Shown here: piece by piece, positions 835 to 30,696 of the stretch
Numbering within the stretch: the first letter of the stretch is position 1
Layout of the letters: the number at the start of each line of letters is the position of its first letter
Source: a bacterium
GTDB taxonomy: Bacteria; Patescibacteriota; Patescibacteriia; S139-126
Assembly (NCBI GenBank): GCA_030666865.1
Contig: DAOUWZ010000004.1
Span: forward strand, 1-57,450
Length of the DNA stretch: 57,450 nt
Direction: 5' to 3'
Notes under the pieces: generated by a model
The model's input: the letters and a program-made list of their open reading frames with translations, nothing else
Databases searched by the model: none
What the model was told of the DNA's origin: nothing
Position numbers and translations under genes: made by a program

Positions 835-2253
835 ATGGATAATTTTTTTAAAAAAATCATATTTATCAATTTAGGATTATTTTTATTATTTTTATTATTT
901 ATTCCTTTTGTTTCAAATGCAGCAGATAAAATGACGGCAGGTGAATTTAGAAAAATATGTTGGACTGAAGAAGAATGTATGAAGGATAGCAAGGGGAATA
1001 AGACTCTTGGCGAAATAGATAAAGATGGATGTAATAGCAGGTATTGTTGGGAGCAAGGTAAAGGTGGTTGTGAAGACGATTTTGGTGTATGTTATGTCAA
1101 GCCAAGCGCCATTAACTTACAGGTTCCTATACCAGGGGATCCTGGTTCAGAAGGAGGTAAGAGTATTAATACTTTAGGTGATAATGTTGGAAATCTTAAA
1201 GAAACTAGAGATGTAACAGGTTTTCCTGCTTATTTGAAAGTGTTATATCGTTATTTTATCAGCATAATCGGGATAGTAGCGGTAATGATGATAGCTTATG
1301 GCGGGTATGAGTGGATTATGGCTGCTGGTAGCGCTGAGAAGATATCTAAAGCCAAAAATACTATTCAAGGAGCAATGATTGGTTTATTGCTCGGGATAGG
1401 ATCTTATGCAATTTTGAATTTAATTAATGACAGTTTAGTAAATATAAAAAATTTAAAAGTTGAAAGAATTAAGCCAATGGTTTTGGCAACTGAATGTAAT
1501 GATAAAGTCTTTTCAGGAGTTAAAGATTGGGTATTGGAATCAGCTCCTAGTAATAATACTGAAGGCAAGCAGCGTTGTGGTGATAATTATATTTCAAAAA
1601 GTGATAATTCAATGGCTTGTAAAGGTATGGATTGTTCATACAGTGGTTCCCCAGGTAAATATTGTATTAAGGAAAATATTGGATGGAAGTGTGTAAGTGC
1701 AGAAGAAATGGAAAAAGATTGTAATGATATAGAGGAAGTATATAATTATCCAGGATTATGTGAAGAAAAAGATAAAGAATGGGCGGAAAAATATCCAGAA
1801 CTTCCGCGTACTTGTAAATTAAAATATGATTGGGGAAATACACAGGTTAACAATTATATTAGTTGGCAAATTACTGCGGGATCAGCTAATTTTTTGTACA
1901 ATTGGATATCAGGGCAAAGTCAAGATAGTATGTCTTGTGTAGCTTATACATTAGTTAAAAAACCAAATTTGACAAAGCGAGTATATTGTCAGGGACACGC
2001 TCCATCATGCTGGAGTAAAGAAGGAAAATATGGATATCATGGATGTAGTAATCCGCCAATTAGAGTAGGTAAAGATTATAATTCAATGTGTGTAAAAACG
2101 GAACTTTGTGTTCCAGAAAGCGAAACACACAAATGTTCATCATATGGGATGAGAGATGGTTGTGAAAAAAGTTTTGAGCCTGATTATTGTAATTGGTTTT
2201 ACAAAGGAAATGAATTAGATAAAGTATTTAGATTATATGGATTAACTAAGTAA
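835..2253 (+). CDS. Secreted Cys-rich protein with a T4SS-pilin-like (TrbC/VirB2-type) two-helix membrane hairpin
   Basis: Signal peptide (LFLLFLLFIPFVSNAADK). Hairpin IVAVMMIAYGGYEWIMAAGSAEKISKAKNTIQGAMIGLLLGIGSYAIL resembles CPR T4SS_pilin proteins. The N- and C-terminal flanking domains are very Cys-rich. Confidence 0.6.
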   Translation: MDNFFKKIIFINLGLFLLFLLFIPFVSNAADKMTAGEFRKICWTEEECMKDSKGNKTLGEIDKDGCNSRYCWEQGKGGCEDDFGVCYVKPSAINLQVPIPGDPGSEGGKSINTLGDNVGNLKETRDVTGFPAYLKVLYRYFISIIGIVAVMMIAYGGYEWIMAAGSAEKISKAKNTIQGAMIGLLLGIGSYAILNLINDSLVNIKNLKVERIKPMVLATECNDKVFSGVKDWVLESAPSNNTEGKQRCGDNYISKSDNSMACKGMDCSYSGSPGKYCIKENIGWKCVSAEEMEKDCNDIEEVYNYPGLCEEKDKEWAEKYPELPRTCKLKYDWGNTQVNNYISWQITAGSANFLYNWISGQSQDSMSCVAYTLVKKPNLTKRVYCQGHAPSCWSKEGKYGYHGCSNPPIRVGKDYNSMCVKTELCVPESETHKCSSYGMRDGCEKSFEPDYCNWFYKGNELDKVFRLYGLTK

Positions 2254-2283
2254 TTAGTATTTATATTATATTGAAGCTAATTT

Positions 2284-3540
2284 ATGGATAAAAAGAAATT
2301 AATACAAATATTGGGGTTTATACTTATAGTGCTGGTTTTGGCGTGGCTAATGTGGATTATGTTTTGGCAGCCGCAGGATAAGCCATATATTCCCGGCGAG
2401 CAGCCCGGGATTGATGGTCGGTTGCCAAGTATTGGCGAGGGTACTATTCCAGGAGTAGTTGATGATGGAAAAGTGGATTTGCCGGATATTGATACGGAAA
2501 TAATTGAAAAAATAAGTGATTTAAGTCCCAAAGAAAGACAGCAAGTTTCTGATATTGCTGATGGCGGACTTACTAGAGTAAAAAGATTGACTGATAACAG
2601 AATTATGGATATTAGCGGTGGAGAAAATTTTAATTATTACGATACCAATGATAATAAATTTTATCATTTGACTGCTGATGGCGAAATACAAAGTTTAAGT
2701 GATAAAAATTTTTATAATGTTGAAAAGGTAAATTGGGCAGATAGCGGCAATAAAGCAATTATGGAATATCCGGACGGATCAAATATATTGTATGATTTTA
2801 ATACTGGCAAACAAAACACCCTACCAAAACAAATGAGCGAATTTGATTTTTCCGATAATGAAAATCAAATTGCTTTTAAGTGGTTGTCTGATTTTGATTT
2901 CGAAGAGGATAATTGGCTTGGTATTTCTAGTCCTGATGGTAGTAGTGTCAATTTTATTGAACCAATGGGTAATAATCATAGTGATGTGCAAGTTGAATGG
3001 TCGCCAAACAGTCAGATGGTAGCTACTTTTCGGGAAGTTCAGGGTTTTGGCGAACAACATATATATTTTGTCGGATTGCATGGTGAAAATTTTAAATATC
3101 TTCGGGTACCGGGAACGCAATTTACTGGCAAGTGGATGCCGGATGGCAAGCAAATTTTATATGATGTTCATTCAGATAGAAATGGATTTCGTCCGTCTTT
3201 ATGGATAACTCGGGCTGATGGAGAAAATATCGGAGTTGGCAATACACCGCTTGGCTTGGAAACATGGGTAGAAAAATGTACTACTAGCGGAAATTCGCTT
3301 TATTGCGCTGTACCAGAAGAATTGCCGGAAGGAGCTGGTTATGTGCCAGAAGTAGCTGATAATATTTCAGATTTAATTTATAAAATTGATTTAGAAACCG
3401 GGGCAAAAAAATTATTAGCTAAGCCAGTAGGAAATTATGGTGGTTATACTGTAGATCAAATAGTAGTTTCTGATGATGGAAGTATATTATATTTTGTTGA
3501 TAAAGCAACTGGCGCTTTGCATTCAATTAAACTTAAATGA
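2284..3540 (+). CDS. Membrane-anchored TolB-like PD40/WD40-like beta-propeller protein
   Basis: N-terminal TM helix (ILGFILIVLVLAWLMWIMFW). Recurrent PD40-like strands (YPDGSNILY, SSPDGSS, WSPNSQMVA, WMPDGKQILY). Confidence 0.55.
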   Translation: MDKKKLIQILGFILIVLVLAWLMWIMFWQPQDKPYIPGEQPGIDGRLPSIGEGTIPGVVDDGKVDLPDIDTEIIEKISDLSPKERQQVSDIADGGLTRVKRLTDNRIMDISGGENFNYYDTNDNKFYHLTADGEIQSLSDKNFYNVEKVNWADSGNKAIMEYPDGSNILYDFNTGKQNTLPKQMSEFDFSDNENQIAFKWLSDFDFEEDNWLGISSPDGSSVNFIEPMGNNHSDVQVEWSPNSQMVATFREVQGFGEQHIYFVGLHGENFKYLRVPGTQFTGKWMPDGKQILYDVHSDRNGFRPSLWITRADGENIGVGNTPLGLETWVEKCTTSGNSLYCAVPEELPEGAGYVPEVADNISDLIYKIDLETGAKKLLAKPVGNYGGYTVDQIVVSDDGSILYFVDKATGALHSIKLK

Positions 3541-3582
3541 TTAAGTTCCTCTGATAAGTATGGTTGGGGCTATTTGTTGACT

Positions 3583-3610
3583 TTGACAAAAGTTTTAAAT
3601 GTATTATAAT
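3583..3610 (+). promoter_or_regulatory. Sigma70-type promoter candidate (TTGACA-N16-TATAAT)
   Basis: TTGACA at 3583-3588 and TATAAT at 3605-3610, about 90 nt upstream of the 3698 CDS. Confidence 0.5.
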
Positions 3611-3697
3611 GTATTCGAAAGTATCATTAATAATATATTTGAATTAAATAGTTGTTTTTAGAGTAATTAAAGTGTTACTTACAGAAGGAGTTTAGTC

Positions 3698-4459
3698 ATG
3701 AAGTTATTTAATTTTTTTGTCGCCAGTTTTTTTATTGTAGTTTTATTTTCTTGTGGATCAGAACGCGTTATTGGTCCAGATGAATTACAAGAACGGGGTA
3801 AAAAAGTTTTCGTTGTCAATGACGAACAACCATTTACCGGTGTGGTAAAAACAGAATTTAAAGATGGAAAGACAGCAACCGAAATCCATTATGTTGATGG
3901 GGAAAAGAATGGTTTGTACTTGAAGTATTATCCAAATGGTCAAAAGCAGTTACAAGCAAATCATGACAACAATGTTTTGTCAGGTTCTGCCGTTGAGTGG
4001 TATAAAAATGGTCAAAAAAAAGCTGAAGGTAATTATACTGCTTGGAAAAAACATGGTTTCTGGAAAGAATATGAGTATTATGATGGAAGATGGGAACAAG
4101 GCGATTATGTATCCGGAGTCAAGCAAGGTATTTGGAGTTTGTGGAAGAACGAAAATTATAAATATTCGGAAGTGAATTATAAAAGTGGTCAAAAGCAAAG
4201 TTATATTGTGTATTTTACTCCCGAAGGAAAAAAATGGTATCAAATTTCTTTTAAACGTGGCAAGGAAAATGGTTTTAGGACTATTTGGCGAAGTGATGGC
4301 AGCATCCAAATGAAAACTTATATTTGTAATGATATTAGAACAGGTCCGGATTCAATTTGGTATAAAAGTGGTCAATTACGATGTGCAAGAAATTATGATG
4401 AAAGTGGAAATTTAATTGGTTCGGAGGAATTATACGACGAACAAGGGAATAGAGAATAA
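3698..4459 (+). CDS. MORN-variant repeat lipoprotein (YwqK-like)
   Basis: Lipobox-like LFSCGS. Repeated G-x-(W/Y)-x-x-Y-x-NGQ-K units. Classic SD GAAGGAG lies 8 nt upstream. Confidence 0.6.
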   Translation: MKLFNFFVASFFIVVLFSCGSERVIGPDELQERGKKVFVVNDEQPFTGVVKTEFKDGKTATEIHYVDGEKNGLYLKYYPNGQKQLQANHDNNVLSGSAVEWYKNGQKKAEGNYTAWKKHGFWKEYEYYDGRWEQGDYVSGVKQGIWSLWKNENYKYSEVNYKSGQKQSYIVYFTPEGKKWYQISFKRGKENGFRTIWRSDGSIQMKTYICNDIRTGPDSIWYKSGQLRCARNYDESGNLIGSEELYDEQGNRE

Positions 4460-4533
4460 TAATTTAATTCAATTTCATCGCACATTTAATAAGAATCGTT
4501 TATGATTTTGGAAATTATAATTTATGACTCTTG

Positions 4534-4576
4534 AAGGGTTTACTCAATAAAGGAAATAATGAGTAAACCCTTTTTT
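4534..4576 (+). terminator. Intrinsic terminator
   Basis: 13-bp stem AAGGGTTTACTCA/TGAGTAAACCCTT followed by a T-run, downstream of the 3698-4459 CDS. Confidence 0.7.
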
Positions 4577-4789
4577 ACTTTATTTTATCATTTTTGCGTG
4601 CCTGTGCAGATAAATGAAAGCAGAAATTTTTACTTGTGGCAGACGGGCAGAAAAAATCTGAATAAGATTTTATAGCTTTGGAATAGAAATTAAATGCTGA
4701 ATAAGTTAAATATTTTCTTATTAAAATTTAAAATTATACACAAACTGAATAAAAATGTTATAATAACATAAAAGAATAAATAAGAATAT

Positions 4790-5533
4790 ATGCCAATAAT
4801 TAAAAAAGAAATCAAAGCAAAATTAGATCTAAATACATTTTTATATATAGCAATTGGTTTGCTATTTATTTCAATAATTATTTTTGTCGTTACCATCAGC
4901 TCAAAACAATTATTTTTAACACCAACTGATAATCTAAAGCAAAAGGCAGAGCAATTAGCTGCTGGAGCGCAAGTCCCATATAGTGATCCTTTAATTATTA
5001 GCACAAAACTAGAATACCCTAAAGTATTATCAAACGATCCAGTACTGGGAAAGGTCAATGCCAAAGTGACTATTTTTGAATATTCTGATTTTTTGTGCGA
5101 ACCCTGCCGGGAGCAGAGTGAAATATTGAAAAAAGTTTTGCAAAAATATTCATCCGACGAAGTTCGTTTAGTTTGGAAAGGTACTGCTCAAAATGCTCAA
5201 GGTTTTTTAGCCGAGCAAGCCGGATATTGCGCGGCAGATCAGGGAAAATTTTGGGAATGGCATGATAATATTTTTGCTGATCAAAATAATGTGAATATGT
5301 TGTATTATTTTGATTTAGCAACTAAGTTTGGACTTAATGTGGATATGTTTGAGAATTGTTTAAGTTCAGATGCGGTTCATCAGAAAGTTTTATTGGTAAA
5401 TGGCGAGGCGATTAATCTTGGGATAGACGCTTTGCCTTATTTTTATATTGATAATACCCCTTATTATGGTGTGCTTAGCGAAGATGATTTGAGTGTTATT
5501 ATTGATTCAGTCATTTCGTCTTTTAATGAATAA
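4790..5533 (+). CDS. DsbA-family thiol:disulfide oxidoreductase, membrane-anchored
   Basis: N-terminal TM helix. Thioredoxin-fold CxxC motif in FEYSDFLCEPC. DsbA-like C-terminal region. Confidence 0.75.
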   Translation: MPIIKKEIKAKLDLNTFLYIAIGLLFISIIIFVVTISSKQLFLTPTDNLKQKAEQLAAGAQVPYSDPLIISTKLEYPKVLSNDPVLGKVNAKVTIFEYSDFLCEPCREQSEILKKVLQKYSSDEVRLVWKGTAQNAQGFLAEQAGYCAADQGKFWEWHDNIFADQNNVNMLYYFDLATKFGLNVDMFENCLSSDAVHQKVLLVNGEAINLGIDALPYFYIDNTPYYGVLSEDDLSVIIDSVISSFNE

Positions 5534-5541
5534 TTGTAATT

Positions 5542-6786
5542 ATGAAATTTAATTTTAAAATAATAATACTAAGCCAATTAGTATTATTTAGTGCTTTATT
5601 TTTTTATATTGGGAATATTGAAGCAGCAACAACCTGTGAATCTTTGGGTGAAGGCTGGGAAGATGGTCCGTTATGCAATACGACTTGTGGTGATTTTAAT
5701 GATGAGTATGCTATTTCTTGCTACTGTGCTTTAAAATCTGGGCCAGACAAATGTTGTATGAAATATTTGGGCCAGTTGGGCGATTATGAATACGCGTGCA
5801 TAGATAATGAAGGAAATACTTTTATGTCTTCTGATAGAACTAGAGTAGAATTGGATTTTTCTTCTCCAGATCCAGATGTTATTTTTAAACCCTCAGTAAC
5901 TATTCCTGGCAGTATAAAAATTGGTGATAAAAATTTTACTTTAAAAAAAGGTGAAGGTATAAAAGTTGACGGTTTATTGATAGCTAAATATTTAGGCATT
6001 TTATTTAGATGGTTGGTTAGCGTAGTTGGAATTGTAGCTGTGTTATTTATTGCTTTTGCCGGATTACAATGGATTTCAGCTGCCGGAAACGCAGAGGTGA
6101 TAAATAAAGCTAAAAAAACTATGAAAGATTCATTGATTGGAGTTTTATTAGCCGTGGCTTCATATGCAATGCTTTATAATATAAATCCTAGTTTGGTTAA
6201 TTTTGGTAGTTTATCAGTTCCTAAAATTATACCGTTGCCTTTAGAAATAGTTGGCGATACAGCCATGTCTTTTACACCAAATTGTACGCCCCCAGCAAGT
6301 AAATTGACTGGTAATGAAGCTTTCACAGCCGCTCAATCGCAAGCAAGTGAACTAACTGGCAAAACAAGCTATATTTTAGGAGCTAAGGCTGGTTCGCCTT
6401 GCTATAATCATTCCAATGTGGATTTTTGTTTGGATTGTTCAGGATTTATCAGTTATATTTATTATTGTGGCGCTAGTCAAAAGGTGCCAGCAGGGACAGC
6501 TAATTTATTCAGCGATTCAGGGCAGCTAATTTATTTAAATAATAGGAGTGATCTTCAACCTGGTGATATTTTAGGATGGAAAGCCGGCGATGGGGGTAAA
6601 GAATTTGGGCATGTAGGTTTTTATGATGGTAGTTCAGTTATTCATACTGCTGGTCCGTCAGTAGAGAAATCGTCTGATTATGAAAATAGAGCTATTAGAG
6701 TAGAGTCGTTAGATGATTTTTTAGCTAAGTATGAAGAGGATAATGACATCCCTATTACTTATGCTAGATTTAAATTTATGGAGTAG
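5542..6786 (+). CDS. T4SS-pilin-like membrane hairpin fused to a C-terminal NlpC/P60 cysteine peptidase domain
   Basis: Signal peptide and a Cys-rich N-domain. Hairpin IVAVLFIAFAGLQWISAAGNAEVINKAKKTMKDSLIGVLLAVASYAML is paralogous to the one in 835-2253. NlpC/P60 signature: CLDCSGFISYIY ... GDILGW ... GHVGFYDG. Confidence 0.65.
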   Translation: MKFNFKIIILSQLVLFSALFFYIGNIEAATTCESLGEGWEDGPLCNTTCGDFNDEYAISCYCALKSGPDKCCMKYLGQLGDYEYACIDNEGNTFMSSDRTRVELDFSSPDPDVIFKPSVTIPGSIKIGDKNFTLKKGEGIKVDGLLIAKYLGILFRWLVSVVGIVAVLFIAFAGLQWISAAGNAEVINKAKKTMKDSLIGVLLAVASYAMLYNINPSLVNFGSLSVPKIIPLPLEIVGDTAMSFTPNCTPPASKLTGNEAFTAAQSQASELTGKTSYILGAKAGSPCYNHSNVDFCLDCSGFISYIYYCGASQKVPAGTANLFSDSGQLIYLNNRSDLQPGDILGWKAGDGGKEFGHVGFYDGSSVIHTAGPSVEKSSDYENRAIRVESLDDFLAKYEEDNDIPITYARFKFME

Positions 6787-6904
6787 CTGAAATAAATCTA
6801 AAAATGGTGAATAAAATTTATGAGCACAATAACAGTGTATAAAAATTTTATTTTAGTAAAAATAAAAGCTACGGGATATATACAAATTATTATTAGTTTA
6901 GCAA

Positions 6905-8257
6905 ATGAGTATAAATACAATTTTTGAGTGTTCAAAATGTGGTGCGCAAACTCCGGCTTGGGAGGGTCGATGTCGGGAGTGTGGCGCTTGGAGTACATTG
7001 CAAGAGGTTGGTGTGAAAAAAAATAACACTAGCAAAGGCGCTGAAACTCCTCTAAATGATAAGGAAATTTTAAATTTAAGTGAGATTGAAAGTGAAAAAA
7101 TACCTCGAGTAGTTTTGGGGGAGGTAGAGATAGATCGGGTGCTTGGTGGTGGGATTGTGCCTGGTTCTTTGATACTGCTTGGCGGTGATCCAGGAATAGG
7201 GAAATCAACTTTAGTTCTACATATTGCTGATTTATTAAATAAACAGCAAAAACAATTATTTTATATTTCTGGAGAAGAATCAGCTGGACAAATCAAAATG
7301 CGAGTTGACCGACTAGGACTAAATTTGAATCAAACAAAATTTATCAATCAAACTGAAACTGGGTTAATATGTGCAACTCTTGCCAAACATAAACCTAATG
7401 TAGTGATAATTGATTCTATTCAGACTATGTCTAGCGATGAAATAGCTGGTGAGATTGGCAGTGTATCACAAGTTCGAGCGGCAGCAGGCAGGTTTTTAGA
7501 AACAGCTAAACAAAATAATATTACTATTATCATAATTGGTCATGTCACTAAGGATGGGCAAGTGGCTGGTCCAAAAATGCTTGAACATTTGGTAGATACG
7601 GTTTTGTATTTGGAAGGTGAAAAAATAAATTCTTTTAGAATTTTAAGATCAGTAAAAAATAGATTTGGTTCAACTGGCGAAGTAGGTATTTTCCAGATGA
7701 ATGTTAAAGGGTTGATACCAGCAAAAAATGCCGCTGGAATATTTGTATCAGCCATTGACAAAGTGTCGCCAGGAATGGTTTTTTCTATCATTTGGGAAGG
7801 TTCTAGAGCTTTTGTAGTAGAATTACAAGTTTTGGCTAGTAAGACAGTTTTTGGCTATCCCAAAAGAACAGCGACTGGGTTTGATTTAAATCGGTTGCAA
7901 ATGTTATTGGCTGTACTGCAACAGCGCGCTGGAATAGTTTATTCTACTGATGATGTTTATGTCAATTTAGCAGGTGGTTTACAGGCTAAAGATTCTGGAC
8001 TTGATTTAGCTTTTTGTTTGGCAGCGCTATCTGCTAAAAAAAATAAGCCAATAGCAAAAGATACGGTTGTTTTTGGTGAGGTAAGCTTAACTGGGCAGAT
8101 TAAACCGGTTAATAATATGGATAAACGTATCAAAGAGGCTTTGCAACTTGGATATAAAAATTTAATTATTCCTCAAACTAAAAAGAAATTAACTAGCCAA
8201 AAAGCCAATATAGTCCAAGTTAGTGATATTAAGGAAATGGTGGATATTATCAAATAA
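6905..8257 (+). CDS. radA: DNA repair protein RadA/Sms
   Basis: N-terminal zinc finger (CSKCGAQTPAWEGRCRECGAW), Walker A (GGDPGIGKST), KNRFG motif and a Lon-like C-terminal domain. Confidence 0.95.
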   Translation: MSINTIFECSKCGAQTPAWEGRCRECGAWSTLQEVGVKKNNTSKGAETPLNDKEILNLSEIESEKIPRVVLGEVEIDRVLGGGIVPGSLILLGGDPGIGKSTLVLHIADLLNKQQKQLFYISGEESAGQIKMRVDRLGLNLNQTKFINQTETGLICATLAKHKPNVVIIDSIQTMSSDEIAGEIGSVSQVRAAAGRFLETAKQNNITIIIIGHVTKDGQVAGPKMLEHLVDTVLYLEGEKINSFRILRSVKNRFGSTGEVGIFQMNVKGLIPAKNAAGIFVSAIDKVSPGMVFSIIWEGSRAFVVELQVLASKTVFGYPKRTATGFDLNRLQMLLAVLQQRAGIVYSTDDVYVNLAGGLQAKDSGLDLAFCLAALSAKKNKPIAKDTVVFGEVSLTGQIKPVNNMDKRIKEALQLGYKNLIIPQTKKKLTSQKANIVQVSDIKEMVDIIK

Positions 8258-8274
8258 TAATAAATTTACTAAAA

Positions 8275-8931
8275 ATGAGGAGGGAGATTTTTTATCAAGG
8301 AGGGTTTTATCATATTTATAACCGCGGCGTTGATAAGCGGACAGTTTTTTGTGATGATAAAGATTATGAGAGATTTTTGTTGGGGTTAAATGTGTTTAAT
8401 CAAGTTGAATCGGTGGGTAATTTACGCGATTATATGAGGTTTCAGACATCCGATGTCCGGAGCTCCGGACATCGGATGTCTGAAAGAAAGCAACTAGTTG
8501 AGATAATCGTTTATTGTTTACTACCAAATCATTTTCATTTTATTTTGAAACAAATAGAGAAAGATGGGGTAAGTAAATTTATGCAAAAATTATCGAATGG
8601 TTATACTAAATATTTCAACACTAAATACCACCGTTCAGGAGTATTATTCCAAGGGAAATACAAAGTCAAGCATATTGATTCAGATGAATATTTACTTTGG
8701 CTATCTGCTTATATCAACGCCAATGCCGAAATACATAAAATAAAACCAGCTAATAAACATTGCTGGTCAAGCTACAGTAATTATGTTTTTGGTAAATCTG
8801 ATTTAGTGCCAGTGAATACCAGAATAGTGATGAGTAATTTTAGTAGTGGGGAAAATTATCAGAATTATTTGGATAAGATTATTCCGGTGTGGCAGGAACG
8901 AAAAGAGATAAAAGAATATATTATTGAATAA
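8275..8931 (+). CDS. IS200/IS605-type Y1 HUH transposase-like protein (REP-associated tyrosine transposase, RAYT-like)
   Basis: YHIYNRG N-terminal strand, HUH motif LLPNHFHFIL, GYTKYFN..RSG.LFQGKYK, and a catalytic-Tyr helix YINANAEIH. Single-copy gene without IS ends. Confidence 0.75.
   Translation: MRREIFYQGGFYHIYNRGVDKRTVFCDDKDYERFLLGLNVFNQVESVGNLRDYMRFQTSDVRSSGHRMSERKQLVEIIVYCLLPNHFHFILKQIEKDGVSKFMQKLSNGYTKYFNTKYHRSGVLFQGKYKVKHIDSDEYLLWLSAYINANAEIHKIKPANKHCWSSYSNYVFGKSDLVPVNTRIVMSNFSSGENYQNYLDKIIPVWQERKEIKEYIIE
8440..8485. repeat. P2-family perfect palindrome (46 bp) lying in frame inside the RAYT-like CDS
   Basis: TTTCAGACATCCGATGTCCGGAG|CTCCGGACATCGGATGTCTGAAA encodes FQTSDVRSSGHRMSE. 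Its 40-bp core is identical to the one at 20206-20245. Confidence 0.9.
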
Positions 8932-8942
8932 TTCATGTTCAG

Positions 8943-8963
8943 GTGAGCGGTCCGACCGCTCAC
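8943..8963. repeat. GC-rich hairpin between convergent genes
   Basis: GTGAGCGGT-ccg-ACCGCTCAC. No clear T-run on either strand. Confidence 0.5.
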
Positions 8964-8967
8964 TAGC

Positions 8968-9288
8968 TTATAAAGCAGTTATAATTTTTTTGAAATCTTT
9001 CAGGTCTTCCAGAGAGATTTCATTTTTTTTCCAAAGTTTATGACCTTTCATTCTCATTAAGTATTTGGTTCGGGATGAAAATTTTCCACCAGCCGGGATG
9101 TATTTGGCATGAGTAGAAATAATTTTTTCAAATTTGGCTAAATCACTGCTGGATAAATTAGCAGTAGATGAGCCACCTCGGATTTTGGCTTTAATTAACA
9201 GGTCGTGCAAAGATTCCGGACCATAGCTTTTGTTGAAACTAGAGCCGGTTTTTATTTTGCCGCCTAGCATTCTTTTAAAAATTCCCAT
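8968..9288 (-). CDS. Hypothetical basic protein
   Basis: 106-aa ORF convergent with the RAYT-like gene. No family motif recognised. Confidence 0.4.
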   Translation of the reverse strand: MGIFKRMLGGKIKTGSSFNKSYGPESLHDLLIKAKIRGGSSTANLSSSDLAKFEKIISTHAKYIPAGGKFSSRTKYLMRMKGHKLWKKNEISLEDLKDFKKIITAL

Positions 9289-9351
9289 GAATTAGTATTA
9301 AGTATAAGGTGTCTTGTGTTAAGTATAAAATATATTGATTAATTATTCAAA

Positions 9352-9385
9352 TAAAAAAGGGATGTGTTGATATCTTACACACCCC
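9352..9385 (-). terminator. Intrinsic terminator (minus strand)
   Basis: GGGGTGTGT/ACACATCCC stem followed by TTTTTTATTT on the minus strand, directly downstream of the 9409-9831 CDS. Confidence 0.7.
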
Positions 9386-9408
9386 ATTTTGAAGAATAAA
9401 ATTAAATT

Positions 9409-9831
9409 TTATCTTCGGTGGCGACCATTACCACCATTGTTTTTGATTGCTATTTTTGCTTTATAGCTAATGGTAGTGGTTGGTACTGCTTTTAGCCTGG
9501 TAACATCAATCAAATCACCAGTAACCCGGCAAATTCCATATGTGCCTTTTTTCATTCGCTGTATGGCAAGGTTTATTTCCATGAGATATTTTTCATCCCT
9601 TTGGATGAAAAGAAATACTTTTTCTCTTTCCATAGCATCGGTGCCTTGTTCAGCCATATGAATGCCATAGGCTGAGCCGCCGTTATTGGCCGGAGTGGAA
9701 CTTTTAGTTGTTTCTCTAAGAAATTCTAAATTTTTTTCTGTTTTCGTTTTTTTGTCAAGAAGTAAATTTTTAAGAATCTTAAGATTTTCTTGACCTATCT
9801 CTTCCGCTATTTTTGTTTCTACTTCTTCCAT
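9409..9831 (-). CDS. DksA/TraR-family-like protein with a degenerate zinc finger
   Basis: Coiled-coil N-terminal part, then MKKGTYGICRVTGDLIDVTRLKAVPTTTIS, which matches the DksA C-terminal layout. Only one of the four canonical Cys is present. Confidence 0.55.
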   Translation of the reverse strand: MEEVETKIAEEIGQENLKILKNLLLDKKTKTEKNLEFLRETTKSSTPANNGGSAYGIHMAEQGTDAMEREKVFLFIQRDEKYLMEINLAIQRMKKGTYGICRVTGDLIDVTRLKAVPTTTISYKAKIAIKNNGGNGRHRR

Positions 9832-10170
9832 AATAACCTCTTTTTTCCGTTTTGTTAAAATTTTCCGTTTTGTTTTGGTGAAAGAGGTTCAAATTAAGGT
9901 GATTTATTTTTTTGAATCATAATTCCTCCTGAAGTTTGTGGTTTTTTATATAGACTTATTTGCAACTGCAAACAAGATTGAAATCACGGCCGTCTAAGGG
10001 TTAAATTTTTTGCCGGCTAGGTGAGGCACGGAAGGACCTCAAACTAGAAAAAATTTAATTAATCCTATAGACGGCGGTGGCAGTATGGCCAAATTTGTAA
10101 AAAACGATATGATTATTTTTATCATAAAATAGTAAAGGTTGTCAATATCACGGAGTAATTGTAGAACAAG

Positions 10171-12237
10171 TTATTCCAAATGATATTTGTGGTATTTTAA
10201 TTCAAATTCTTTTTTAATTAAAGGATAAAGAGATAGGTCAGGGGAATTTTTGATAATATCTCGGGCGGCTTGTTTGGCAATTTTTATTAAATCCAGGTCA
10301 GTTAAACTGGCAATTTTTAGGTCTGGTAGTCCTGATTGGCGAGTGCCATATATTTCTCCCATTCCTCTTTGAGTCATATCGTATTCAGCTAGATCAAGGC
10401 CATTATCAGAGTTAACCAAAGCGTTTAAGCGATCGACAGTTTTTTGGCTTTTATTATCAGTAAATAAGAAACAATAGGATTGTTTGTCTGACCGACCAAT
10501 GCGACCACGGAATTGATGAAGCTGAGCTAAACCAAATCTATCAGCGCCTTCAATAATCATCACCGTAGCATTAGGTATGTCAACGCCAACTTCTATAACA
10601 GAAGTAGAAACCAGTATATCAATTTTACCTTGTTTAAATTTGTTCATCACTTCTTTTTTTACCGCTACTTTCAATTTTCCATGTAGCAATCCAATTTTAT
10701 TTTTTGGGAAAATTGTTTTGGTTAGTTTGGCGTATTCATCAGTAGCTGCCTTTACTCCCAATTTATCCGATTCTTCTATCAAAGGGCAGATAACATAAAC
10801 TTGTTGTTTTTGTTTGATAATATTTTTGATAAAATCATATGCTTTTTCGCGGTCTATAGCGGAAACCACTTTGGTTATTATTTTTTTTCGGCCTGGTGGT
10901 TTTTGTTTGATAATTGAAATATTCAAATCACCATATAAAGTAAGAGCCAAACTGCGGGGAATTGGCGTGGCAGTCATAGATAAAAAATGTGGTAGCATTT
11001 TTGGTGTTTTATCTTTGAGTTTAGCTCTTTGCTCTACCCCAAATCGATGTTGTTCGTCAATTACTATTAATCCCAAATTTTTAAAAGAAATTTTTTCTTG
11101 CAACAGAGCGTGGGTGCCGATAATTATATCAAGTTTACCGGCAGCTATTTTGTTAATGATTTTTGGTTTAGTTATTTTAGTAGCATCAGTATTAATTTGA
11201 CGACTGCTTCTGGTAAGAAGTCCTATGTTTAATTCAAATTGTTTTAAGGTATTTTGCAAAGTATGCCAATGTTGATTTGCCAGTATTTCTGTGGGCGCTA
11301 AAATAACTGATTGTAAGCCAGAGAAAGAAGTATTTAGACAGGCAATGGCGGCTACTACTGTTTTGCCAGATCCAACATCACCTTGAAGTAATCTGTTCAT
11401 TGGATTTGGTTTTGCTATATCTATCAATATTTCCCAAGCGCATTTTTTTTGATCATCGGTTAAGGTGAAAGGCAGTGATTTGACTAGTTTTTTAGTTTTG
11501 GTTTCTTGGAAAATTATTGGGTGGGCGGATTGACTGGAAATGGCTGATTTATTTTTTTCTTGGATAAGTTGAATAATAAATAATTCATCAAATTTTAAAC
11601 GTTTTTCAGCGGCCGCAAAATCATCAGTATTATTTGGCCAGTGAATTTTTTTTAATGCTTCTGGCAATGGTATCAGATCGTATTGTTTTAGTATTTCAAT
11701 GGGTAGCCATTCCGAGATAGTAGTAAACAGGGGAGTAATTTGTTTGATTAAAAATCTGATTTGTTTTTGAGTGATATTATTTGTTGATGGATAAATTGGT
11801 ACAATTCTGGCAGTATGAATAGTATTAGCATTTGTTTTTTCCCACATTGGGTTAGAAAATTGGAGATTGTAATAGTCATTATCAACTTTTCCAGAAATAT
11901 AAATTTCATCACCATTTTTTAGTTGTTTGGTGATATAGGGTTGGTTGAACCAGATTATTTTTATACTGCCACTTTTATCGCTTAATAAACATTCGGTCAG
12001 ATTCATTCTTTTCTTTCTTGATCGGCGACTGGATATCAATTCTATTCTTCCTTTGATGGTAGTGTGGTCATTTGTTTTTAAATCGGAAATATTTTTAATA
12101 ATAGAATAATCTTCATATCTTCTTGGCAAGTGCCAAATCAAATCCCAGACATTATTTATGTCCAGTTTTTTTAACCGCCTGGAAGTGGTTTTGCCAACTT
12201 TGGTTAAAGCTGAAATTTTTGTGTCAAAAGTTATCAT
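10171..12237 (-). CDS. recG: ATP-dependent DNA helicase RecG
   Basis: Wedge/OB N-terminal domain, LPFTLTDDQ, Walker A GDVGSGKT, DEQHRFGV and QLHQFRGRIGR. Confidence 0.9.
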   Translation of the reverse strand: MITFDTKISALTKVGKTTSRRLKKLDINNVWDLIWHLPRRYEDYSIIKNISDLKTNDHTTIKGRIELISSRRSRKKRMNLTECLLSDKSGSIKIIWFNQPYITKQLKNGDEIYISGKVDNDYYNLQFSNPMWEKTNANTIHTARIVPIYPSTNNITQKQIRFLIKQITPLFTTISEWLPIEILKQYDLIPLPEALKKIHWPNNTDDFAAAEKRLKFDELFIIQLIQEKNKSAISSQSAHPIIFQETKTKKLVKSLPFTLTDDQKKCAWEILIDIAKPNPMNRLLQGDVGSGKTVVAAIACLNTSFSGLQSVILAPTEILANQHWHTLQNTLKQFELNIGLLTRSSRQINTDATKITKPKIINKIAAGKLDIIIGTHALLQEKISFKNLGLIVIDEQHRFGVEQRAKLKDKTPKMLPHFLSMTATPIPRSLALTLYGDLNISIIKQKPPGRKKIITKVVSAIDREKAYDFIKNIIKQKQQVYVICPLIEESDKLGVKAATDEYAKLTKTIFPKNKIGLLHGKLKVAVKKEVMNKFKQGKIDILVSTSVIEVGVDIPNATVMIIEGADRFGLAQLHQFRGRIGRSDKQSYCFLFTDNKSQKTVDRLNALVNSDNGLDLAEYDMTQRGMGEIYGTRQSGLPDLKIASLTDLDLIKIAKQAARDIIKNSPDLSLYPLIKKEFELKYHKYHLE

Positions 12238-13822: not shown

Positions 13823-13858
13823 ATTATCGTGATTAATCGTACGATTAATCACGATAAT
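13823..13858. repeat. Perfect 36-bp palindrome
   Basis: ATTATCGTGATTAATCGT|ACGATTAATCACGATAAT. Confidence 0.9.
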
Positions 13859-20198: not shown

Positions 20199-20252
20199 AA
20201 TAAAACAGACATCCGATGTCCGGAGCTCCGGACATCGGATGTCTGTTTTATT
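20199..20252. repeat. P2-family perfect palindrome (54 bp). Likely bidirectional terminator after lemA.
   Basis: AAATAAAACAGACATCCGATGTCCGGAG|CTCCGGACATCGGATGTCTGTTTTATTT. A/T runs flank both sides. Confidence 0.9.
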
Positions 20253-24453: not shown

Positions 24454-25407
24454 CTATTTTATTAAAATCATTTTTTTGACCTGGCTATATCCAGATTGAG
24501 TTGTGAGTTTATAAAAATAGGTTCCGGATGACAAGTTTTGGCCATCAAATGAATAGTTGTAGCTGCCAATAGACAGTTTTTCATCAACCAGAGTAGCCAC
24601 AGTTTGACCTAAGATATTATAAACGGTCAGATTTACGAAATCGGCTTTGTTGATAGAAAAAACGATGTTAGTCGCCGGATTAAACGGATTAGGATAATTC
24701 TGATTGAGTATAAATGATTCTGGAATGCCTTTATAAAAAGGTGATATATGAGAAACTAGATCATCGCCTCCCATATAATCTAAGACACAAGAATCTTTTT
24801 GAGAATGGAATCGAATTTGATCACAGATATGTGATATAGTATCGGAATTACCACCATCTTGGTAAATGAACAGACTGTCAATATGGGTGATTACTGGAAG
24901 TGGATCATTGCCATTTAGATTTTTCCAGTTATGAAAATAAATCGTAGTTGTGTCATCTTGCTCCATTGATTGTCCATCAATAAAACCGTAGCTACCAGAG
25001 TAGTACATTTCACCTTTGTGGCGTATCCAGATTTGGAAAGAGTTTGACGGTGAGTCTGTTATCATTTTCAAATCTGCATAAAGCATTAAATTTGTCATCC
25101 AATCAGGAATTATTGCTTCAGTACTGTCGGTATAGTCTTTGTAATAGAATACATATTCAGATCCAGGTGTTGGGTCGTGAGTGAATTTTAAAGCTTCACT
25201 TTCGCTACCACTTAGACCACAGCACGGATTTATATAGGCCGAGTCGGGTAGCTGAATATTATACTCAAACCATGGAGTTGTTTCTGGGTAACATGGGACA
25301 TACCCCAGTATTGGTTGAAGATTTGTTGAAGTTGTTTGCGCAAAAGTTGTTCCCACCAATCCTGCGAAGAGCAGGATTACGCTTAAAAAAGTTAGATATT
25401 TTTTCAT
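24454..25407 (-). CDS. Secreted protein with a T9SS-type (Por_Secre_tail) C-terminal sorting domain
   Basis: Signal peptide ending TFAQ. C-terminal NYPNPFNPATNIVFSI...VYNILGQTVATLVDE...SGTYFYKLT...KKMILIK matches the type-A T9SS CTD pattern. SD GGGAGGA. Confidence 0.7.
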   Translation of the reverse strand: MKKYLTFLSVILLFAGLVGTTFAQTTSTNLQPILGYVPCYPETTPWFEYNIQLPDSAYINPCCGLSGSESEALKFTHDPTPGSEYVFYYKDYTDSTEAIIPDWMTNLMLYADLKMITDSPSNSFQIWIRHKGEMYYSGSYGFIDGQSMEQDDTTTIYFHNWKNLNGNDPLPVITHIDSLFIYQDGGNSDTISHICDQIRFHSQKDSCVLDYMGGDDLVSHISPFYKGIPESFILNQNYPNPFNPATNIVFSINKADFVNLTVYNILGQTVATLVDEKLSIGSYNYSFDGQNLSSGTYFYKLTTQSGYSQVKKMILIK

Positions 25408-25476
25408 GATATCCTCCCTGTTATATGAAAGTTTTAGTTCACTTTATTTGTGAAAGTTCTAATTAAAGAATAACAC

Positions 25477-25505
25477 ATTCTACTAGAATTATTAAATTTT
25501 GTCAA
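25477..25505 (-). promoter_or_regulatory. Sigma70 promoter candidate on the minus strand (TTGACA-N17-TAGAAT)
   Basis: The reverse complement of 25500-25505 is TTGACA, and that of 25477-25482 is TAGAAT. It lies upstream of the T9SS-CTD gene. Confidence 0.5.
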
Positions 25506-25574
25506 GTCTAGGGAGTGGATATGCTGTGAATATTAGTATTTAGAAGTTAGTAGATAGGAGGAGGTAAATAAATT

Positions 25575-25619
25575 ACAAATTTTAAATTATACCTGCCTGC
25601 CGGCAGGCAGGAATCCTAA
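25575..25619 (+). repeat. 45-bp direct repeat (right copy), containing a P1 palindrome at 25592-25611
   Basis: Identical to 24213-24257. Confidence 0.9.
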
Positions 25620-25791
25620 GATCCTGGATAGCCCTACGCTTCGCTTCATTGCTTCTGGGATGACAGTAGAGAGGAAGGAATGACAAAAAGAGCACAAAAT
25701 TTTATTCTTCTATTTTATCACCCCCTATTAATTATACTTGATACCAGTTTATTTTAGCGTTATATTAAAAATATAAGTAATTACTAAACAA

Positions 25792-26658
25792 ATGATTAAT
25801 AATGAAAAAAGGCTTCGTGTTCTTGTTAAAGAAGATAAAATTATCCAGTTGACTTATTTGAAAATAGCTTCTGTTGAAAAAATTGAAGCTGAATTCCAGG
25901 GATTAATATTTATTAAAAAAATTGGATTTAATGCTCCTGCTATAATTAAGCGTACAAAAGATTCTCTTTCCACAGAATATATTAGAGGAATATCAGCATT
26001 CACTGCTTTAGAGATACTAAGTAGAAAAAAGAAAGTTGATTTGGTATATAATATTTTAGATGAACTTTGTCGCGGGGTAAAAATTTTTCATAGTAAATGT
26101 AAATTTTTAAAAGTAAATAAATATATACCATATCAAGTTGATGTTAAAGTGCCGCATATAACGACGATGTTGAAAGAATCTAATATTAGACTAGCAAAAC
26201 AGCTTGAGAATATTACACCTCAGATTGTAGAATACTACAAGAAAGCAAATATTCCTTTTCGAGATGCTACTCCTAAAAATTATATTATGAGCGATGTTAG
26301 TAAAGATAGTGTAGATGTATTAAATGATAGTAATTATCGAAATAAGTTGACATACATAGATGCGTCTTCTATGAACGAATTAACTTTTTTACCAGATGAT
26401 TTTATAAGTATTTTATTTCATTATATGATTGAAGATGATATCAGATTAGAGCTTCTAAAAAAATATGAGATTGATATGAATTCAAAAGAATTTATTATTA
26501 GCGCTTTTGTCAGATTTGGTAGGTTCTGGGTAAGAAGACAATATTATAAAAAGTATCTCCCAGAGATTTTTAGGAAAAGATATACTTATGAAAAAATTGG
26601 TCATTATAATAAAATAATGATGGAATATACAAAAAAAGTCATTGAATTATTAAATTAA
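25792..26658 (+). CDS. Atypical protein-kinase-like-fold protein (putative small-molecule kinase)
   Basis: STEYIRG hinge-like motif, a catalytic-loop-like FRDATPKN (D-x4-N), and a YIDAS (DFG-like) motif. No canonical HxD. Confidence 0.45.
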   Translation: MINNEKRLRVLVKEDKIIQLTYLKIASVEKIEAEFQGLIFIKKIGFNAPAIIKRTKDSLSTEYIRGISAFTALEILSRKKKVDLVYNILDELCRGVKIFHSKCKFLKVNKYIPYQVDVKVPHITTMLKESNIRLAKQLENITPQIVEYYKKANIPFRDATPKNYIMSDVSKDSVDVLNDSNYRNKLTYIDASSMNELTFLPDDFISILFHYMIEDDIRLELLKKYEIDMNSKEFIISAFVRFGRFWVRRQYYKKYLPEIFRKRYTYEKIGHYNKIMMEYTKKVIELLN

Positions 26659-26661
26659 ATT

Positions 26662-27069
26662 ATGAATTGTAGTTTTCATCACATAGCATTAAATGTTTCT
26701 AATTTAACAAAGTCAATAGAATTTTATACAAAAATTTTGGGTTTTAAAAAAGGTTTATCATTTGAAAGTTCAAATAAAGTTACTAAAATACAGTATTTGG
26801 GATTAAATGATATTAATTTAGAGTTGACTTCTAGATCAATCAAGCTTCATTTGTTTAAAAGAGATGCTAGCAGAGTCATGATTAAACATATAGCTTTTAA
26901 AGTAGAAAATATTAAAACTGTTTATAAACAGTTAGTAGATAAGGTTGATTTTATTTCAGAGATTAAAGTTAAAGTAATAGACAGTGGTATTATAAAGTAT
27001 TTTTTTATAAAAGATCCTGATAGAATTGAAATAGAATTTGTAGAAATAAATCTAAAAGAAGATGAATAA
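26662..27069 (+). CDS. VOC (glyoxalase/bleomycin-resistance/dioxygenase) family protein
   Basis: HHIALNVSNLTKSIEFYTKILGF, HIAFKVENI and DPDRIEIEF. Confidence 0.7.
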   Translation: MNCSFHHIALNVSNLTKSIEFYTKILGFKKGLSFESSNKVTKIQYLGLNDINLELTSRSIKLHLFKRDASRVMIKHIAFKVENIKTVYKQLVDKVDFISEIKVKVIDSGIIKYFFIKDPDRIEIEFVEINLKEDE

Positions 27070-28210: not shown

Positions 28211-28220
28211 ATTTTATTTT

Positions 28221-29795: not shown

Positions 29796-29843
29796 AATAA
29801 TTATAAAAATATAATCGTTATTGTTATTTTAGGAGGTGGTATT

Positions 29844-30368
29844 ATGTTTTTTAAAAATTTAGCTTTACCAATGAGAGCTCAACCTTTTCATATTGGTCAT
29901 GCTCGGTATATTAAGCAATTTAGTAAAATGTGTAACAGAGGTTTAATATTTTTATCTAAAGAATATGATTTAGAGGAAAATCCTTTTTTATACAAGACAA
30001 GGGAATTTTGGATTAATAAATTTTTGTCTGTTGAAAATATAAATAATATTTTAATTGCTAAGAGAGAGAAAAAGCTAGTTGATATATCAGGTAAATATGA
30101 AGAATATGTTAATTGTTTTGACACTACTGACTTTGTTGTTATCACCACTAACGAAACAGATAATATTTATAAATTGACAGGACTTCAAACATTCAATCAT
30201 CATGATCCTGATTTTGTAAAAGAAATTTGGGGAAAGAGTTTAGGACGCATTAAGTTATTTTCTACTGGAAGAATTATCAGAGAAAGATTAAAGAAAGATT
30301 TGGATTGTTCAGACTATTTAACACCCTTGGTATATAAAGAGGCTAGAATGGTTATGCAAAACATTTAA
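29844..30368 (+). CDS. HxGH nucleotidyltransferase (cytidylyltransferase superfamily, NadM-like)
   Basis: MRAQPFHIGH (RFQPxHxGH-type) and STGRIIR (ISSTxIR-type). Strong SD AGGAGGTG. Confidence 0.65.
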   Translation: MFFKNLALPMRAQPFHIGHARYIKQFSKMCNRGLIFLSKEYDLEENPFLYKTREFWINKFLSVENINNILIAKREKKLVDISGKYEEYVNCFDTTDFVVITTNETDNIYKLTGLQTFNHHDPDFVKEIWGKSLGRIKLFSTGRIIRERLKKDLDCSDYLTPLVYKEARMVMQNI

Positions 30369-30458: not shown

Positions 30459-30516
30459 ATTAACATACCTACATCCGATGTCGGGATTTCCCGACATCGG
30501 ATGTAGGTATGTTAAT
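30459..30516. repeat. P2-family palindrome (58 bp, variant)
   Basis: ATTAACATACCTACATCCGATGTCGGGA-tt-TCCCGACATCGGATGTAGGTATGTTAAT. It shares the ACATCCGATGTCSGGA core with 8440-8485 and 20199-20252. Confidence 0.9.
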
Positions 30517-30660: not shown

Positions 30661-30696
30661 AATTACTTATTTAATTACGTAATTAAATAAGTAATT
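30661..30696. repeat. Perfect 36-bp AT-rich palindrome
   Basis: AATTACTTATTTAATTAC|GTAATTAAATAAGTAATT, nested in a longer CAATAAGG/CCTTATTG stem. Confidence 0.9.

Follow-up and report, generated by a model that had tools for sequence, protein, structure and literature searches.

A REP/REPIN-like palindrome inside a RAYT-like Y1/HUH gene of Patescibacteria, with the encoded enzyme as its probable partner

Pairs of repetitive extragenic palindromic (REP) sequences and REP-associated tyrosine transposases (RAYTs) are the usual model for a transposase that has been domesticated and lives alongside non-autonomous repeats of its own, and they raise the questions of how such a pair stays matched and how REPs are copied. 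In the described REP/REPIN-RAYT systems ('REPtrons') of Proteobacteria, exemplified by E. coli TnpA-REP/YafM and the Pseudomonas RAYTs, the REPs flank the RAYT gene and do not lie within it (PMC2817692, PMC3116915, PMC3333891, PMC3479197, PMC5581495). Here we describe a palindrome that is translated in frame inside a RAYT-like gene of a Patescibacteria genome (contig DAOUWZ010000004.1 of assembly GCA_030666865.1; the window is the whole 57,450-nucleotide stretch analyzed). By analogy with RAYT systems, we consider it rather probable that this palindrome is the copy resident at one site, H1, of a lineage-specific REP/REPIN-like family, and that the partner of this family is the Y1/HUH enzyme encoded by the very gene in which it lies. 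The gene, the palindrome with its two half-sites and the extragenic copies are as follows.

8275..8931, plus strand: Y1/HUH single-stranded DNA (ssDNA) nuclease/transposase-like gene (RAYT-like), an open reading frame (ORF) of 218 aa with HUH residues H86/H88 and Tyr146 in a SAY(I/V)NxN helix.
8440..8485, strand not applicable: in-gene perfect palindrome at the H1 site, REPIN-like, translated as FQTSDVRSSGHRMSE (residues 56-70).
8445..8457, strand not applicable: left half-site GACATC-C-GATGTC, the added inverted copy, encoding TSDV.
8468..8480, strand not applicable: right half-site GACATC-G-GATGTC, encoding GHRMS in the frame of the H1 hairpins of two homologous loci, L025 and L057.
20199..20252, strand not applicable: extragenic sister (copy 2), a perfect palindrome of 54 bp that has the same 40-bp core, letter for letter, at its center.
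30459..30516, strand not applicable: extragenic related copy (copy 3), a 58-bp perfect palindrome that shares the inner part ACATCCGATGTCGGGA and has different outer arms.

As in REPtrons, a Y1/HUH enzyme, present once in the window and apparently inherited vertically, is accompanied by lineage-specific short palindromes that lie mostly downstream of genes, cluster at the enzyme gene and, as inverted pairs, form one long hairpin. The present system differs in that the enzyme's own reading frame holds translated hairpins, at two positions that are conserved; its palindromes show no mismatch and have spacers of 0-5 nt; the host belongs to the Patescibacteria; and the protein, at about 218 aa, is longer and has a C-terminal helical extension. 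Among other relevant systems, palindromic elements in protein-coding genes are said to have been described in Rickettsia by Ogata in 2000, and for these Rickettsia palindromic elements (RPEs), as for the CGTC REPs, we know of no cognate enzyme. The nicking enzymes of phiX174 (gene A) and pT181 (RepC) have their origin or hairpin in their own coding sequence, so that, as here, the enzyme is passed on together with its site and the two co-vary; those are replicon origins with one site each, whereas here the hairpins are dispersed on the chromosome and no replication role is indicated. Bacterial interspersed mosaic elements (BIMEs) share with our system the regular spacing of REP-type hairpins and, in two loci (L021 and L044), their alternating orientation, but are spaced by tens of nucleotides and not by the roughly 200-280 nt seen here, where the array overlies a coding sequence. 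Finally, the surveys of intragenic REPs and RPEs (Di Nocera 2013, PMC3733652; Delihas 2008, PMC2229807) report in-frame palindromic inserts, including in housekeeping genes, that occur as singles or dimers, add about 7-30 residues in presumably tolerant loops and sometimes hit the same protein twice, all of which resembles the present case. Their hosts are unrelated genes with different insertion sites, whereas here the hairpins favor the gene of the candidate enzyme itself, where they keep to fixed positions in hundreds of species. Since intragenic REPs are thus known from ordinary genes of other phyla, and since the hairpins described here are also found in other genes, in-frame residence is not new by itself.

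The window palindrome is made of two 23-nt arms (8440-8462 and 8463-8485) that are 100% complementary and separated by no spacer, and the translation of the 218-aa ORF includes the segment MRFQTSDVRSSGHRMSERK. Each arm is in turn a small palindrome with an odd central base, GACATC-C/G-GATGTC, so that the whole is a palindrome of palindromes with the layout of a REPIN: two inverted 13-nt inner palindromes that form one long hairpin and, in relatives, change in compensatory fashion. The 40-mer CAGACATCCGATGTCCGGAGCTCCGGACATCGGATGTCTG occurs exactly twice in the window, at 8443-8482 and 20206-20245, where none is expected (100 shuffles), and the inner 13-mer GACATCSGATGTC occurs six times against 0.3 expected, always within the three palindromes. 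As ssDNA the three fold at -25.7, -29.5 and -31.3 kcal/mol (z-scores -9 to -15), and the core has a G+C content of about 60% compared with about 33% for the window. All three reading frames through the element are open.

Both extragenic copies occupy terminator positions. Copy 2 begins 14 nt past the stop codon of lemA (LemA Pfam E 5e-63) and has T-runs on either side, while copy 3, with 28-nt arms that are 100% complementary around a 2-nt spacer, lies 90 nt after an unannotated ORF of 174 aa (29844-30368) and is followed by T7, upstream of rpsL; common to copy 3 and the other two is ACATCCGATGTC[C/G]GGA. The outer arms of the two extragenic copies differ (AATAAAA/TTTTATT and ATTAACATACCT/AGGTATGTTAAT, with T-runs following), and to judge by their letters the cores look as if they had been inserted into the loops of earlier terminator hairpins. 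A first-pass annotation of the window had pointed out the in-frame 46-bp palindrome, the exact recurrence of its 40-bp core and the diverged third copy, and had placed the sisters in intergenic terminator positions; each of these observations is borne out. Copy 3 is preceded by a region of low G+C (25001-30000; 0.279 compared with 0.32-0.35 elsewhere), the 'AT-rich island' of that annotation, within which lies a 524-aa ORF (28221-29795). Two further perfect palindromes of 36 bp, A+T-rich and without a spacer, are found at 13823-13858 and 30661-30696, the second of them between copy 3 and rpsL.

The host gene encodes a member of the Y1 HUH transposase superfamily, with an HUH motif, a single Tyr on the following helix and a ferredoxin-like fold. 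It carries the YHIYNRG and NHFHF motifs, and Pfam Y1_Tnp (PF01797) matches at E 1.6e-8 (35.2 bits against a cutoff of 23) in an alignment that starts from residue 71, right after the palindrome. A search of 5.8 billion proteins returned 1,770 relatives at E<=1e-5, of 205-244 aa and from Patescibacteria, nearly all of them unnamed or labeled 'transposase' or 'RayT'. In an alignment of 35 homologues Y12, H13, N16, R17, G18, N85, H86, H88, Y146, N150 and H154 are invariant, and from its sequence the gene appears to be catalytically intact. A search of the window with the degenerate motif YH(I/V)(Y/F)NRG found no second Y1 gene, in agreement with the earlier claim that this is the only such gene there and that it bears IS200/RAYT hallmarks.

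A sequence search of the PDB gave no meaningful match to the protein. The AlphaFold2 model (mean predicted local distance difference test, pLDDT, 88.9; predicted template modeling score, pTM, 0.86), when compared with the PDB using Foldseek, has as its top match 4er8_A, the E. coli RAYT bound to a REP hairpin (E 1.3e-6, TM normalized to the target 0.71), and the TnpA structures of IS608, ISDra2 and IS200 rank below it (E 8e-5 to 1e-3); all 23 matches at E<=1e-3 are Y1 transposases. The modeled fold therefore appears closer to RAYT than to the IS200/IS605 TnpA structures. Within the model, residues 51-70 form a coil of low pLDDT (block means 70 and 54) that connects helix 50-58 to the strand ahead of the HUH motif, so that residues 56-70, encoded by the palindrome, are predicted to be a flexible surface linker. 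That the segment might prove to be a surface loop had been suggested at first pass, and the model agrees.

To place the palindrome among its relatives, the gene bodies of 80 homologous loci from GTDB species representatives (of at least 569 stretches) were searched for inverted repeats, and hairpins with arms of at least 10 nt were tallied by hand from the repeat-finder output. An internal hairpin is present in 54 of the 80 genes. It falls at one or both of two sites: H1, some 145-215 nt from the start (about +180), which is the site of the window palindrome and is filled in 42/80, and H2, some 430-505 nt from the start (about +450) and right after the catalytic-Tyr helix, filled in 26/80. By our own estimate, the chance of a perfect hairpin with 11-nt arms in a 650-nt gene is about 1e-3. 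The hairpin sequences vary by genome (AAGGTCCGACCTT, AGAGCTAAGCTCT, GGAGGTTCAACCTCC and CTTGGAAGC...GCTTCCAAG are examples), and the linker that they occupy varies in both length and sequence across the 35 aligned homologues, being shorter in those without hairpins. Gene length follows the same trend by hand tally, at about 597-645 nt with no hairpin, 624-672 nt with a single one and 648-714 nt with a doubled one. The peptide words that recur in the linker, TSDV ... RHR(M/T/R)S, GHPMS, RHSMS and LGNRVSK, are the two reading directions of a palindrome. The first-pass annotation had named, as an outcome that would refute its reading, a segment conserved here in both length and sequence; the homologues have instead a variable linker with palindromes of their own.

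The fullest layout is seen where hairpins also stand outside the gene. In both L025 and L057 the 13-mer of the window occurs four times, before the start codon, at H1, at H2 and after the stop codon, and H1 and H2 share a reading frame (LGH(R/P)MSK in L025, SRH(R/P)MST in L057). The spacing from the upstream hairpin through H1 and H2 to the downstream one, about 220/275/200 nt, is the same in L025, in L057, in L084, whose hairpins are of another class, and in 12 of 12 further loci examined. Genes flanked by their own genome's hairpins were found in these 12 and in L004, L008, L011, L013, L016, L025, L057 and L084. Across the Patescibacteria sequences compared, hairpins are in this way tied to four fixed positions of the Y1 gene family, two internal and two flanking. 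The relatives also show how the window element may have come about: its right arm, GGA CAT CGG ATG TCT (GHRMS), equals the single H1 hairpin of L025 in sequence and in frame (read as GHRMSE, it is homologous to the LGHRMSK of distant relatives), and its left arm adds 24 nt as a further copy in inverted orientation, so that the element is an older single hairpin that has been doubled into a REPIN-like form. The 13-mer of the left half likewise equals the single hairpins that L025 and L057 have within their homologous genes and beside them.

Two regularities that might have been read into these arrays do not hold up. The orientation of the hairpins, as given by the central C or G, is not conserved, being a-b-a-a in L025 and L057, a-a-a-b in L084 and a-b-a-b in L021 and L044, where the alternating loops recall BIMEs. 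Conservation of frame is only partly valid as proof of common descent: the doubled element of L016 has stop codons in two of its three frames, so that selection alone would fix the frame there. Some loci moreover mix hairpin classes, the upstream and H1 hairpins of L026 differing in class from H2 and the downstream one, and the classes alternating in L050. Such mixing, together with alternating loops, hints at recombination at hairpins between gene modules.

The age of the in-gene palindrome can be judged from the two closest homologues (L081 and L083), which at 62% and 59% identity retain the gene order of the window: radA is followed by the Y1 gene, by an ORF of 106 aa in the opposite orientation and by a DNA glycosylase gene, with a dksA-type gene in L081. 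Synteny kept at about 60% identity argues for a resident, vertically inherited gene and not a hopping insertion sequence (IS). A perfect palindrome stands at the same place in all three.

Window: TTTCAGACATCCGATGTCCGGAG directly followed by CTCCGGACATCGGATGTCTGAAA.
L081: TCCAGACCTCCGATGTCTGGA-AC-TCCAGACATCGGAGGTCTGGA.
L083: TTCCAGTCCTCCGACTACTGGA-AC-TCCAGTAGTCGGAGGACTGGAA.

At least seven arm positions differ among the three and, as judged by eye, every change is mirrored in the opposite arm, while the encoded peptide varies from QTSDVRSSGHRMS in the window to QTSDVWNSRHRRS in L081 and QSSDYWNSSSRRT in L083. A one-off, recent insertion was rejected on the strength of this comparison. The first-pass suggestion of a self-targeted insertion tolerated in a surface loop accordingly stands as far as the low-confidence loop is concerned, and fails in so far as it implied a recent or unique event, H1 being filled in 42/80 homologues and in both orthologues. 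An extragenic sister in L081 (4363-4398) bears the same lineage-specific variant as the in-gene copy of L081, and the syntenic spacer in the window is empty; in-gene and dispersed copies match in L004, L008, L011, L013 and L016 as well. Within each of these genomes, then, the sequence of the hairpin is common to in-gene and dispersed copies.

Covariation was counted formally in a set of 26 single H1 hairpins, taken from different genomes. Double-sided changes were seen in 11/11 stem pairs, 95.5% of cells were paired compared with 66% after shuffling and 27-46% with the partners slid, and the covariation score was 0.87 compared with 0.27. One-sided changes of the G:U type numbered 0 in the ten inner pairs (260 inner stem cells), an absence that is partly one of ascertainment as the hairpins were collected with a reverse-complement finder. 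The lack of G:U-type pairs, and the fact that both strands are equally palindromic, point to a constraint on DNA or to DNA-templated copying and not to RNA structure. As far as these alignments go, pairing is upheld by double changes that are all of the Watson-Crick kind, and the peptide can vary freely.

Several observations weigh against the view that the palindrome belongs to a family whose partner is the enzyme of its host gene, the ascertainment just mentioned among them. At the thresholds used, 26/80 homologues have no internal hairpin, from which it follows that the protein does not need one. The window gene itself has no H2 hairpin and no matching flank copies, its 5' spacer is only 17 nt and its 3' hairpin is of another class, and the 57 kb of the window show no more than three copies of the hairpin. 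In L026, L050 and L062 a single Y1 gene has hairpins of two or three classes around it, which complicates any picture of one enzyme with one hairpin. The NCBIfam equivalog model for RAYTs (REP_Tyr_transpos, NF047646) scores 33.9 bits, under its cutoff of 80, over a partial match (residues 66-151), and the protein would on this account be a distinct subfamily at best. The 5' guide tetranucleotide GTAG/GTGG is found at none of the three window copies (flanks TTT, AATAAAA and ...ACCT); GTAG does occur within some stems (L057, L027, L083), inconsistently. The same hairpins reside in unrelated genes, as set out below, so the Y1 gene is not their sole coding host. Above all, the link between enzyme and hairpin is drawn from their co-location and from analogy with RAYT and IS608. 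The suggestion made at first pass, of a REP-like hairpin inside the gene of its presumptive cognate enzyme, nonetheless gains support from the fold, the loop and the relatives' own dispersed hairpins, and its picture of an in-gene copy with extragenic sisters is accurate; what it did not foresee is that the family also has H2 and 5' and 3' flank copies, which the window gene lacks.

The hairpins are dispersed well beyond the Y1 gene. A scan of the species representatives for TGGAGGTTSAACCTCCA gave at least 120 matches; among those listed, the hosts are overwhelmingly Patescibacteria, several bins have matches on 3-4 contigs and some clusters show the four-hairpin spacing. In L016, copies of the GGAGGTT.AACCTCC class at 7585-7641 and 11262-11298 are doubled elements that lie in frame in a 554-aa radical-SAM (S-adenosylmethionine; Elp3-like) protein, giving GGSTSIMEVEPP, and in a 248-aa SAM methyltransferase, giving GGSTSIREVEPP. 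In L151 two tandem hairpins of this class lie in frame in gatB (1082-1123), giving LEVQPPSGTGGSTSK, an insert missing from GatB relatives at 81-84% identity. Intragenic REPs and Rickettsia RPEs are described as behaving in this way (PMC3733652), and the window element bears the marks of such an insert: an in-frame position, an intact ORF, dispersed sisters, a loop of low confidence and shorter linkers where the hairpin is lacking. Residence in gatB, radical-SAM and methyltransferase genes also fits a view in which the palindromes are selfish or structural, RPE-like or derived from terminators, and spread by slippage, template switching or another enzyme, the Y1 gene being a tolerant, non-essential host with two permissive loops. 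Fold-back copying could give perfect symmetry without a transposase, the outer arms of the extragenic window copies differ and resemble earlier terminator stems, and intragenic REPs without a dedicated transposase are documented in the CGTC REPs and RPEs (PMC3733652). We nevertheless consider this view unlikely. It leaves unexplained the extreme enrichment at one gene family, at the same two positions in 54/80 and at both flanks; no other gene of the window carries a copy of the inner 13-mer; and the favored host happens to encode the kind of enzyme known to bind such hairpins. In the available part of the supplementary text of PMC3733652, which should include the table of hosts of intragenic REPs, the word 'transposase' is absent, which would mean that no transposase is listed there as a host.

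Repeats of other kinds were seen in the same genomes. GatB homologues P0126, P0127, P0137, P0191 and P0211 contain a repeated peptide, KLTSLRTDEEGNPTEA and variants, at two sites and sometimes twice per protein, which, to go by its sequence, resembles another family of mobile inserts that lie in frame in housekeeping genes of Patescibacteria. L024, on a 1.3-Mb Moraniibacteriota contig, has dispersed tandem arrays of 8-nt (AACAATGA-like) and 9-nt (AATTATTCT-like) units in several intergenic places (1600-12000). L010 has three copies of a 66-nt repeat with the hairpin GCGATAAGGTTATAGATATAACTTTATCG (1077-3553) and two exact copies, 195 nt apart, of a 36-nt sequence (4798-5028), and an unrelated second hairpin family, CGTTCACATCACACTnCGTGTGATGTTCAC, occurs three times near the Y1 gene in L011 (9939-11727).

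A second alternative is that the in-gene palindrome is a built-in regulatory hairpin that mainly controls its own gene, for example by attracting RNase III, by hindering translation or by offering a site for autoregulatory binding on mRNA or DNA, with the extragenic copies being ordinary terminators that happen to use a similar sequence. The 23-bp perfect stem that it would form in mRNA is a plausible substrate for a double-strand RNase, and the hairpins hold conserved positions within the gene while the peptide is unconstrained. Repression of IS200 tnpA by hairpins, cited in PMC3733652, offers a precedent. The 260 inner cells free of G:U-type pairs fit a constraint on DNA and so speak against a role that depends on RNA, and the identical or variant-matched copies outside the gene and in other genes are left without explanation. 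Furthermore, a terminator scan found none at the in-gene copy, which no T-run follows, and attenuation by this copy was dropped on that ground. With internal hairpins missing from 26/80 homologues as well, we regard regulation as the explanation of the palindrome to be doubtful indeed, although it can coexist with membership in a REP-like family.

A third alternative treats the whole gene as an autonomous, mobile IS of the IS200/IS605 type, of which the flanking hairpins are the ends and the internal ones relics of nested insertions. The Y1 HUH fold is shared with TnpA of IS608 and ISDra2, and many relatives of the window gene have matching, end-like hairpins directly 5' and 3' of the gene. 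In L057 a 12-bp direct repeat, TTTATCCACAAT, at about 3546-3557 and again at about 4350-4361, brackets the hairpin-gene-hairpin unit, and could either have arisen as a target duplication or belong to some longer repeat. Paralogue pairs exist in some genome bins (L015/L022, L038/L077, L056/L059), and contigs often end near the gene. Such an IS is a multi-copy unit with left and right hairpins and often tnpB, and the window gene is none of these things: it has no matching flank hairpins, a 17-nt 5' spacer, radA and the 106-aa ORF as its neighbors and no tnpB partner. One Y1 copy is present in the 57-kb window and synteny is kept in two relatives at about 60% identity, with two paralogues in some bins. 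Hairpins that spread alone, hairpins internal to the gene and a weaker fold match to the IS enzymes than to RAYT complete the difference, and we consider the autonomous IS improbable.

Chance or an assembly artifact can be dismissed, for although assemblers can create or break perfect palindromes, and L004 has NN (793-794) exactly at the center of its in-gene palindrome, none is expected by chance, the window element lies mid-contig in an intact ORF and the same position is filled in dozens of independent assemblies from different studies. The NN of L004 is an assembly gap. Many homologue contigs end near the Y1 gene, and palindromes probably fragment metagenome assemblies.

Of these possibilities we retain a lineage-specific REP/REPIN-like family with the RAYT-like enzyme as its likely partner, and we propose the following model, which is drawn largely from RAYT and IS608. 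The palindrome would fold when its DNA is single-stranded, during replication and possibly during transcription. The Y1 enzyme may then bind and nick the folded hairpin via its HUH motif and Tyr, as RAYT does with REP and IS608 TnpA with its end hairpins, and could go on to copy or convert hairpins at hairpin-prone sites, namely terminator loops, permissive protein loops and its own gene. In this model, the in-gene copy would persist at low cost, since translation turns it into a disordered linker on the surface that joins helix 50-58 to the HUH strand. Because enzymes of this kind tend to act close to their place of synthesis, and two loops of the protein tolerate the added residues, its own gene would be the one most often hit and homogenized. 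It is possible that the in-gene hairpin is a donor that always stays linked to the enzyme gene, or that it restrains expression of that gene.

A more ambitious extension, which we offer as tentative, is that the RAYT-like gene and its H1, H2 and flank hairpins make up one integrated unit in which the hairpins are functional cis-sites and not tolerated passengers. They might then be permanently linked masters, or points of recombination where domains of the enzyme meet, that the protein uses to seed and homogenize the hairpins genome-wide.

One more feature of the window may or may not belong to the system.

8943..8963, strand not applicable: the single hairpin GTGAGCGGTC-C-GACCGCTCAC, between convergent genes and 12 nt beyond the stop codon of the Y1 gene.

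This hairpin is G+C-rich, has the x-C-x' form of the family hairpins and sits at the downstream position that a family hairpin fills in relatives; it is of another sequence class and unique in the window, and its membership is uncertain. Elsewhere in the window, an intergenic region (9986-10095) has long-range complementarity (CCGTCTA...TAGACGG) and a GGTGAGGCACGGAAGGACC motif, recalling signal recognition particle (SRP) RNA. An SRP RNA there is unsupported by Rfam (best E 0.13-0.37, unrelated families). At the gathering threshold an Rfam scan of the window returned three tRNAs and nothing else, so that the hairpins were covered by no RNA family.

REP/RAYT systems, REPINs and in-frame intragenic REPs are already known. 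We did not find a description of hairpins inside a RAYT-like gene at conserved positions in a very large clade, of a four-hairpin layout at the domain boundaries of an enzyme, or of such a system in Patescibacteria; the literature search, which was incomplete and gives absence of evidence only, yielded nothing on REPs inside RAYT genes and nothing linking RAYT/Y1 enzymes, REPs or palindromic elements with Patescibacteria. A clade of more than 1,700 proteins, with at least 569 stretches in species representatives, offers natural, presumably matched pairs of enzyme and substrate in many specificity classes, of which GACATC.GATGTC, GGAGGTT.AACCTCC and GGAAGC...GCTTCC are examples, directly testable in vitro. 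In practical terms, the palindromes probably interrupt assemblies, and annotated proteins gain lineage-specific peptides from them.

For the reduced genomes of Patescibacteria, the system amounts to a repeat biology of which we found no earlier description, and it ties in-frame inserts in essential proteins, such as that in gatB and the comparable problem of the Rickettsia RPEs, to a concrete candidate enzyme. If gene and hairpins do form one integrated unit, RPE-like palindromic inserts that lie in frame in housekeeping proteins would have their first candidate enzyme, and DNA-templated copying from arm to arm would be what keeps the palindromes perfectly symmetric.

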